A stretch of DNA of 64,000 bases from Camelus ferus (lineage: Eukaryota): the NCBI RefSeq assembly GCF_009834535.1, contig NC_045696.1, positions 24,926,001 through 24,990,000 of the forward strand, read 5' to 3'. Positions 25,656 through 29,010 of this stretch are shown here, piece after piece. Each line of letters opens with the position of its first letter. The first letter of the stretch is position 1. The notes under the pieces were generated by a model. The model was not told the origin of the DNA and made no database searches. It saw only the letters and a program-made list of their open reading frames with translations. The position numbers and the translations under genes were made by a program.

Positions 25656-25763
25656 GCTGATACAAGGTCATTTCAGTTCATCAGATTAAAATCCATGTAT
25701 AAAAATATAATGGAGTGTTTTTTTGTGGTTGCTCAAAAACAAATTTTCAGCATTATGAAATAA
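25656..25763 (+). pseudogene. Exon relic: ADTRSFQFIRLKSMYKNIMECFFVVAQKQIFSIMK*
   Basis: tttttcccccag acceptor, GTAATT donor, 108 nt phase 0-0, open until the last codon. CFFVVAQKQIFSIM parallels RGS4-type [13 protein letters not shown] (recalled). Confidence 0.75.
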
Positions 25764-26017
25764 GTAATTGCATATGTAGTCCTCCATATGCTTGCTCTTT
25801 TGAGTAACATACCTCATAGTTTTTTTTTTTTAACTTTTCAATCTAGACTAAAATTTAAACTATCACTAGGTCATACATAGTCAATCTAATAGACTAAAAA
25901 GCTATTTGAAGTAATTTTCTGTCTCTAAGCTACCTTTTGGGAACTGTATAATTGGTCTGCTTCACTAGACAGCCAAATACATGCAAATATATTTTCCTGT
26001 TCATGACTTTTTTCCAG

Positions 26018-26095
26018 GCAGTCCCTCGGGTTCATACTATCAGTTCTTGTTTGCTTTTGTTGGTGGCTGACTTGAAGTATTTTTAGGCTTTCATC
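26018..26095 (+). pseudogene. Exon relic bridging two RGS repeats: AVPR/(fs)FILS.../(fs)LEVFLGFH
   Basis: ttttttccag acceptor and ATC|GTATGA donor. PR-FILS continues the RGS 'SYPRFLxS' motif from the previous exon. Ends phase 1, matching the next exon. Confidence 0.6.
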
Positions 26096-28140
26096 GTATG
26101 ATAATAGTGAAAAGAAAAATATTCACCAAGGAGTCAAAGATAATTGCTAGGTCACTACTGAAAATGATAGTTAACTGCAGGATTCTGCTGTTTGGATATG
26201 GATATAGAAAATATTTTGAATAATTTCTTTTTCTTCAAGAATACTTTGAGGGGTTGAATGTGTTTTTTCTTAAGTATCAGTTAAAATATATTTTGCATTC
26301 TCTCTGATCTTGGGGTTTTGATGTTGTGTGCAGTGAACTGAAACATTGCACTACAAAAAGAAATCTTTATACAGTTGACAGCTTGTAGGTCTCTTGAGGA
26401 GTCTGTTCAGTTAGTGTCATGTCCTGGCTCCCCATAGAATCAGAATTCACACAGAATTGTAGATGTCTGAGAAATTGTATTTAATAAACCAAGAAAGGGA
26501 TCACAAAATTCTTTAAAATAAAAAAGAAAAAAAAGTGGGTTCTGCATAGTGTATGTAAAGACAATAGCCTAGAACTTGACATTTAGTTGACTGTGAGTGA
26601 AGTTTCCTAAAATAGCTCACCTCTATCTATGGAAGGTATAAAAAGTGAAGACTGGAGAACTTGGATCTATTATAAAGGTAGAATGACTAGCAAAATGCTA
26701 TGAATGGGATTAAAATCTTACCAGAAAATAAGGTATTACACAGCTAAACACAGGCATATAATAGGGAGTAGGAGCAATCAAGGAAAATTCTGGTTTTGAG
26801 TTCCCCAAATTCACTTTTATTGGTTACTGATTGTGTGGTATATGGTTGAAAAGGCTTGGTGTAAAAACATAGTTTCTATGTATACAGTCTCCTCTCCAGG
26901 CTGGAGTGATCACATATCTGCTTGCTCCTGCTCCAGCAGAATGAAGAGCAGAAAGTTGTTGCTGACAGTGACACTGATGCCCAGACAGTCTGAATGGTTT
27001 TTGAGCTCTACCTTGATCTACCTTCTGACTTGTTTAGATCATTTGGTCCTTCCTTCCCATGCCTATGCCCTTCCAGTTCTCCTGATTTTTTTTTTTCCTA
27101 GTTAGATATACTTTGTCTCGACTTCCATTTCTGATATAACTTCCTGGTTGTTTTGTCTTTTCTCTAGTCACATCTTGATCTCTGCTCTGAATATTGGTCC
27201 TGACTTTGCTTCATTCTGGTGGTCACAATTTATCTCCAACCTCATGGACTGAATGTCTCCGTATGTAGCTCACTCGTGGCTTTCTCTTCTTTTAAAAGGA
27301 CTACTATGTTCCAAATTTTGTTTTTATCCTACCCATCCAAGTAGGACATAAATAGTTAAGCAGCAGGCATGAATTACATTCTTTCCCTCTAATGGAGTTT
27401 GATCATTGGGAAAGTGACGCAATCAAGCCTTTTTGTAAACATGTTAATGACAAACATCCTGGCAAACAAATTCATGGCATGTGCTGGCAGGGGAGTTCTT
27501 ATCTTGGGAGTGCTTTTGGTAACAATGGCGTAATTTTCGAGAATTGCCAATAGCAAAATAACATGGAATCTATGGATTTCTGGGGCATGATTATCTGAAT
27601 ACAAAGTGTTGAAATTTCATATCAAAAATGGCTCATCCTGAGTAACTGATGTGGCTGCATACGTGATCTGGAGACCACATTTTTGATCTGCTGCATCCTA
27701 ATGTGATAATGCCTGGACAGTTATTTTGGTGGTTTGGACTTCTCTCTGTTTTCTTTGTCTCATGATTAGTGTTTCCTTGAAACCTGAAGTGGATAAGCTC
27801 TGATTCATATGAGAAAATAGACAATCTAATGCTTTTTGCATGATTGCATTCATCCAGTAGTATTTTGATATTATTCATTTATCAGTGCCTACAGTTCTAG
27901 AGCCGAAAATGCTTTTAAAACCTCTATGAGTGAGATATTTTCATCATAACATTTTTGTCATGAGAAAACAAGGAAATCACTGTTGATATTTGAAATAGTT
28001 TATTTGAAACACTTCAGAGTCAGATCATGATTCTTAAAGTTACTTAATACTTAAATTCTGTACGTAAATTATATAATCTCTCTCACAAACGTTCACCCAG
28101 AAAAAATGCTTATGTTAATTAACATAGTTCCTAAAAGGCT

Positions 28141-28175
28141 ACCTTTGTTGGCCTTTTGGCTAAGATCAAGTGTAG
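28141..28175 (+). pseudogene. 3'-truncated U2 snRNA pseudogene fragment
   Basis: GGCCTTTTGGCTAAGATCAAGTGTAG (28150-28175) is identical to U2 nt 11-36 (recalled), followed by A-rich sequence. Confidence 0.9.
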
Positions 28176-28319
28176 AAAAAAGAGGAAAGTTGTAAAAAAA
28201 AAAATAAAAAATAAAAAAATAAATTATTAAAAGCTTTTTATATAAATGTAATTGTACAATGCAACATACAGTAAATATTTAACTATTTCTTAATCCAAAA
28301 GCAAATAAATTGATTGTGA

Positions 28320-28530
28320 TTAATAATTATTGGATAGCTACTAAATACTAAGACCATGCTGAAGTTTTATATGTTAATCAAATCTCTTAAGCTTCATGAT
28401 TTTTCCAAGCAGCAATTCTTACTTATAGCTGGGAAAACAGATTCAGAAATAGTCAGTGTTCCTCATTATATTCAGTAAATGACAGAGATCAAATTTAAAA
28501 TCGGGACTGGCAGATTTAATGGTTGTGCCT
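28320..28530 (-). mobile_element. MIR fragment
   Basis: ctactaaatactaagaccatgct...agtaaatgacagagatcaaatttaaaatcggg. Confidence 0.5.
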
Positions 28531-28900
28531 TTTTTTTCCCCCACAGTGTATTACCTAATGTAGCATTATCATGGAGTTAACTTGGAAAGATCTTGTTTTT
28601 GATTTGATTCTATACCATTAGTAGAAAACTTAATAATAATTTTATAGTAACTAATATTATTGATTTCTAGTTTAAAATTCAAAACAATTGTTTCACTTTT
28701 GGTAGTTTATTTATAGGTGATTCTGTTTATTACTGAACCAAACACTATCAAATTAGTTTCAGCAAAACATTATCATATTAAATTTGTTATTAATTTTAAT
28801 TTATTATGTGGTTATATGTATTGAATTTATTTTATAATTCTATAAGAGCTGTAAGCATAAGCAGTTTGATAGAAGTTAAATTTTTATTTTTTCCTTTTAG

Positions 28901-29010
28901 AAGGGTTGATATATTGAAAATTTTTAGAAACAGAGATGGAAATTCCTTGTGCTTTTGACATTATGTTGGCCAAACCTAAGTGGTTATTTGGAAAGGAACA
29001 GAGTTCTCTG
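28901..29010 (+). pseudogene. Exon relic: (Q)GLIY*KFLETE/(fs)DGNSLCF*HYVGQ
   Basis: Very strong acceptor tttttattttttccttttag. G..xxKFLxTE...NxLxF(W) is the RGS alpha3-alpha4 signature, with TGA at the expected Trp position (28956-28958). 3' end uncertain. Confidence 0.65.

Follow-up and report, generated by a model that had tools for sequence, protein, structure and literature searches.

The 64,000-nt stretch of Camelus ferus DNA analysed here (the window) probably carries, some 26 kb upstream of the likely exon 1 of ROBO2a, the remains of an old, unprocessed pseudogene derived from a gene that encoded two or more RGS domains side by side. As read from the sequence, the relic consists of three exon-like segments (E1, E2 and E3), which were found on one strand and in the order of the RGS domain. 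E1 would have encoded helices 6-7 of one RGS domain, E2 the end of that domain and a link, and E3 helices 3-4 of the following RGS domain; two further segments, E0 and E4, are possible neighbouring exons. The locus today would make no RGS protein and is likely inert in camel.

Segments, splice signals and lesions

The segments and introns were located as follows (window positions).

23281..23328, + strand: E0, tentative upstream exon of 48 nt, phase 0/0, with P-x-E at the donor; it would be a helix-5 exon joining E1
25656..25763, + strand: E1, likely RGS helix 6-7 exon of 108 nt, phase 0/0, with 35 open codons and TAA as the last codon (25761), followed by GT
25764..26017, + strand: likely intron E1-E2 of 254 nt, GT..AG, donor 2.2 bits and acceptor 10.8 bits, predicted from sequence
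26018..26095, + strand: E2, likely exon of 78 nt; in the reading of the initial annotation, helices 8-9, linker and helices 1-2 of the next domain
26096..28900, + strand: likely intron E2-E3 of 2,805 nt, containing a U2 snRNA-like fragment, donor 0.6 bits, predicted from sequence
28901..29010, + strand: E3, likely exon for RGS helices 3-4 of the following domain, 110 nt, phase 1; the frames of the initial annotation contain three stops and one frameshift
30758..30914, + strand: E4, tentative downstream exon spotted by eye, with a helix-6-like block at 30826, approximate boundaries and weak splice sites
16013-16266, 17286-17507, 21958-22180, 10403-10565 and 12278-12318, + strand: faint RGS-like, exon-shaped segments seen by eye, none of which passed statistics

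All three segments were present in the sequence with their AG/GT ends, and the translations contained every motif quoted in the initial annotation. Splice sites were scored throughout with a rough matrix of approximate site frequencies. Among 4,091 AG sites, the acceptors of E1 (12.3 bits), E2 and E3 were at the 99.7th, 99.2nd and 98.0th percentile, while the donors scored by the same matrix were weak to moderate (78.9th, 67.0th and 91.7th percentile). The acceptor of E2 was the strongest of the three acceptors after E1.

The initial annotation had called for the repair of frameshifts; these exist, and the damage was greater than it stated. Along its path, stops were found at 25761, 28915, 28956 and 28977, and frameshifts were found twice in E2 and once in E3, so that 296 nt contain seven lesions, and no open frame spans E1-E3. 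An exon-intron layout with disabling lesions was therefore present, the four stops and three frameshifts lying in AG/GT-bounded segments. The usual RGS spacing was one codon short at two places along the same path. An alternative reading of E2 in phase 0/0 contained one stop and no frameshift, and was preferred by spliced alignment (38.4 vs 32.8 bits).

In a simple neutral model with 0.05, 0.1 and 0.3 substitutions per site, the probability of at least four stops in 98 codons was 0.003, 0.035 and 0.41, respectively. Since so many stops would hardly be expected at a divergence under about 0.1, the loss was likely much older than the living camel species, and an old loss would explain the absence of close protein matches.

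Intron positions and helix blocks

Reference loci were obtained from a motif scan of metagenome contigs, which gave 118 loci, nearly all of them RGS genes. A custom RGS profile was built from 25 intronless domains of the metagenome loci, and position matrices were built from these loci and from 112 RGS proteins of a word-index search. The anchored tests were designed after the data had been seen, with matrices from canonical RGS sequences and order-4 Markov nulls.

A strong acceptor lay at most 45 nt before FL..E in 51 of 111 distinct reference loci; the distance was 23 nt (phase 1) in 29 of the 51, 20 nt in 2 and 3 nt in 12, and the acceptor was elsewhere in 8. In the reference downstream exons, the Q of F..AQ was codon 27 past a phase-0 acceptor in 10 of 13 cases, and this spacing was present in 73/73 matched protein domains. 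E1 started at exactly this phase-0 intron position of animal RGS genes, with the Q of F..AQ as codon 27. The start of E3 had the phase of the common phase-1 RGS intron and was one codon short, the acceptor being 20 nt before FL..E. The comparison of intron positions suggested by the initial annotation thus backed an RGS origin, exactly for E1 and with the right phase for E3.

The anchored score of E1 was 13.0 bits, which ranked first among 747 acceptors (runner-up 1.9) and was reached by none of 11,147 simulated acceptors. E3 scored 12.6 and also ranked first of 747 (runner-up 7.9), with 0/11,147 simulated acceptors as high, or 2/11,147 when the acceptor score was added. The score of E3 requires one dropped column (-1.9 without it), an option that was also given to the nulls and was chosen post hoc. 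The number of acceptors within 6 kb of E2 available as an E3 start was 32. For any one base, the rate of a 5-bit acceptor was 409 in 64,000.

The helix-7 motif of E1, F..AQ..I..LM at 25719, scored 23.5 bits unanchored, and the next real site scored 14.9; the helix-7 block gave 11.3-16.6 bits in 20 simulated strands, and E1 was higher than all 20. The helix-7 block of E1 and its exact intron position are independent, and both are extreme. The conserved intron positions together with this block therefore support an RGS origin. With the custom RGS profile, E1 was the top tile over six frames, narrowly (7.3 vs 7.1 bits).

The other blocks were less distinctive. The helix-4 block (EN..FW) of E3 was equalled by 418 of 2,062 windows and the whole helix-8/9 block (DSY.RF) in E2 by 686 of 3,997; the sub-block at the E2 start was equalled by 61 of 3,998 windows, and the end motif of E2 ranked 229th of 2,533 donors. 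Back-to-back RGS repeats with a very short linker had been proposed from these segments. Adjacent repeats agree with the order seen, an exon from the end of a domain and, 3.1 kb on, one from the start of a domain; the proposed very short linker is less secure, as it depends on E2, the weakest piece in both of its ends and with rival frames. Such a linker would presumably be shorter than that of AKAP10.

For E0, the P-x-E donor, 2.3 kb before E1, was scored with a 17-column matrix, which placed it first among 2,532 donors, and was matched by 4 of 15,698 simulated donors; with a 13- or 8-column matrix it was second on the + strand, and the 10 kb searched held 161 donors. The gain from E0 in the chain model was not significant (41/300 shuffles). 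The helix-6 sub-block of E4 at 30826 was the best of 1,048 windows, with a matrix from only 8 sequences, while the helix-5 and helix-7 sub-blocks of E4 were not significant (338/841 and 784/969). No further RGS repeats passed the anchored scans of the window.

Compared with canonical R4/RZ/R12 RGS genes (PF00615), the relic shared the helix-7 motif, a phase-0 intron placed 27 codons ahead of its Q and a phase-1 intron just before G..FL..E. It differed in the intron after the helix-7 motif, the two spacings that are one codon short, the likely second domain and the lack of a Pfam match. In the reference loci, the exon carrying the helix-7 motif runs on through a DSY.RF-like motif, and E1 had no such continuation beyond its last codon. 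Where N is usual after the phase-0 intron, E1 has D, and the DSY motif's D had no counterpart; decay masks the ancestral state. These residues contact G-alpha in canonical RGS domains.

Free-start tests, searches and rival explanations

With a free start, E1 scored as a typical best chance exon, since 22 of 42 simulated strands were as high, or 16 of 30 when splice scores were included. The three-exon chain scored 48.5, below the best chance chain (63-81) in 30/30 simulated windows. When E1 was fixed, shuffled E2 and E3 equalled the real score in 38/300 and 52/300 trials, and cheaper frameshifts still gave no gain of E2 or E3 over shuffles (30-70/200 and 41-68/200). The initial annotation had judged motif continuity across the exon junctions unlikely by chance. 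This was not borne out for the continuity itself, with the chain below 30/30 nulls and E2 and E3 no better than shuffles, and it holds for the helix-7 motif of E1 (20/20) and for the acceptor positions of E1 and E3 (0/11,147). Its shuffle check gave a similarly divided result: the X-joined peptide scored 9.0 bits, a value reached by 0/1,000 shuffles, but E1 alone also scored 9.0, and the check ignores the choice of segments.

Planted canonical relics at 15% decay had a median score of 89.6, and 25/25 were above 48.5; planted older or atypical relics scored about 49, and planted random protein-like exons had a median of 46.8. The free-start chain test thus excludes a young canonical copy and is without power for an old atypical relic, and this low power explains part of the failed free-start tests.

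Splice sites dominated the spliced alignment when their scores were uncapped. With capped scores, the best + strand path beat 30/30 nulls at one setting, and 3/30 nulls were higher at another; this path was an unspliced stretch at 19759-19911, unrelated to E1-E3, and was rejected. The stretch 19759-19911 (+) had the top unspliced score against the custom RGS profile (20.9 bits), and the sequence adjoining it resembles what we take to be an old DNA-transposon repeat. Exons proposed by eye at 10403, 12278, 16013, 17286, 18827 and 21958 had no statistical support; 18827 came second in the phase-1 scan only. The segment 18827-19063 (+) is AG/GT-bounded and 237 nt long; it has an open frame of 73 codons, its donor reads GTAAGT, and it could be a further relic exon. 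It had no match in Pfam, PDB or the protein atlas, and the predicted fold of 18846-19064 was of low confidence (pLDDT 54).

Pfam searches with 16 single, unjoined pieces (27-83 residues) at E up to 10 gave no RGS (PF00615) match, and the sole row noted was DUF5494 (E 0.19). Five pieces searched against PDB sequences at E up to 10 gave chance rows only and no relative, though RGS22 was present (9fqr_Ha). Two pieces had no match in the protein atlas, and a full scan of 1.84 billion representative proteins with E1 found no orthologue. Three word-index protein searches, which are weak for short decayed queries, found no orthologue: one returned nothing; the second gave 112 matches, all canonical RGS, with a best tblastn match to the window of E 0.08 (58852-58908); the third gave two matches, both repetitive chance. 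RGS22, AKAP10 and RGSL1 were absent from these word-index and full-scan results, which are weak for such queries. Two loci, both chance, came from viral contigs scanned for the motif. A conserved fish family of single-domain RGS proteins of 315-345 residues was also seen (P0043, P0072, P0100 and about ten similar proteins); the sources name it inconsistently (RGS1, 3, 8, 18 or hypothetical), and it has no relation to the camel locus.

Six probable DNA runs contained 0.93-0.96 of the sampled words of the region, so other samples agree closely with the assembly. Eight RNA or probable-RNA runs contained 0.20-0.44 of the words, four of them labelled reproductive system, which is a lead only.

Three other explanations were weighed. 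An RGS origin of E1 alone or of E1 and E0, or of E1 and E3 from two separate single-domain copies, with E2 and the short linker a construct made by eye, appears unlikely. The shuffles of E2 and E3 (38/300 and 52/300), the two competing frames of E2 and the allowed deletion on which the significance of E3 hinges are in its favour; however, E3 was first of 747 acceptors with 32 as choices within 6 kb of E2, and E1, having no DSY.RF-like continuation, needs a following exon. Chance alone, with ordinary AG/GT signals in AT-rich non-coding DNA read as RGS motifs, is rather improbable. It would account for free-start exon and chain scores inside the null, a top free match (19759-19911) unrelated to E1-E3, another RGS-like stretch by chance at 58852 and blank database searches, and such matches sometimes arise since many families can be tried. 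It does not sit well with the helix-7 block and exact intron position of E1, independent and extreme as they are, and the free-start tests are weak for an old atypical relic, the planted median of about 49 being that of the real chain.

It is very improbable that the segments belong to a recent copy of some known RGS gene, or to a live gene in which assembly errors created the lesions. Strong acceptors persist and the RNA or probable-RNA runs contain part of the words of the region, but planted canonical relics at 15% decay beat 48.5 in 25/25 trials, protein searches gave no close parent, the six probable DNA runs (0.93-0.96 of words) agree with the assembly, and seven lesions lie within 296 nt. 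An old pseudogene of a tandem-RGS gene was therefore the preferred reading.

Genomic setting and related multi-RGS proteins

The mammalian DNA of the window is rich in AT (GC 30-44%). A CpG-rich, non-coding-looking stretch was found at 51600-52018 (+), with a donor of 13.1 bits at its end (52019). In human, exon 1 of ROBO2a is described as non-coding, 266-286 bp, within a CpG island and more than 30 kb from exon 2 (PMC7010700). By position and layout, 51600-52018 (+) is likely ROBO2a exon 1; E1 would then lie on the same strand, some 26 kb further upstream. The stretch 58852-58908 (+), in the likely first ROBO2 intron, resembles RGS helices 3-4 (tblastn E 0.08-0.5) and was treated as a chance look-alike. 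At 5990-6500 (+) there was a CpG-enriched stretch (observed/expected 0.64) that resembles an LTR or a promoter. Within the E2-E3 intron, at 28150-28225 (+), a 5' fragment with an A-rich tail, which we take to be U2 snRNA-like, is likely a truncated retrocopy; it had no Rfam match at the gathering score, and nothing from Rfam was found in the region searched.

The literature searched, whose coverage was incomplete, described no RGS gene or relic next to ROBO2. The four supplementary files of PMC5577775 contained no RGS, ROBO2, LIPI, HSPA13 or SAMSN1. As in unitary (unprocessed) pseudogenes and lncRNAs from lost genes (PMC5577775), the exon-intron layout was kept here and the frame destroyed; unlike unitary pseudogenes, the camel relic had no intact orthologue in the protein searches.

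Two multi-RGS proteins resemble the putative ancestor. AKAP10 (D-AKAP2) has two tandem RGS domains binding Rab4 and Rab11 (PMC2781703). Its adjacent RGS domains in one gene are like the layout proposed here, although AKAP10 is intact while the camel locus is broken, and the two had no sequence match. RGS22 has four RGS domains without G-alpha contact residues, and is a radial-spoke protein that stabilises ciliary radial spokes; in mouse RGS22, the two closest domains are about 43 residues apart by the coordinates of the paper (PMC13443885). The divergent RGS domains of RGS22 (9fqr_Ha) match canonical profiles poorly (24.9 bits vs a two-domain RGS query), as does the relic; however, 0/5 window pieces matched 9fqr_Ha at E up to 10. 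By analogy with RGS22 or AKAP10, the ancestral protein would most likely have served as a scaffold with tandem RGS domains and not as a G-alpha GAP.

The relic would thus belong to a domain family that is already known, and it may point to a lost gene not yet described. A wider proposal is possible, if doubtful: the relic may represent a vertebrate multi-RGS lineage distinct from RGS22, RGSL1 and AKAP10 and not yet described, encoded just upstream of ROBO2a, with nearly linkerless domains, which would have died early in mammals, may still be transcribed in reproductive tissue, and would have an intact, unnamed orthologue in non-mammalian genomes. As a point of method, conserved intron positions can rescue a relic missed by profile searches. 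Because RGS22 and AKAP10 have non-GAP roles (cilia and membrane traffic), another multi-RGS lineage would be of interest. If real, the relic would show where a gene for a signalling or scaffold protein was lost, a defined locus that can be inspected directly in birds, reptiles and amphibians.
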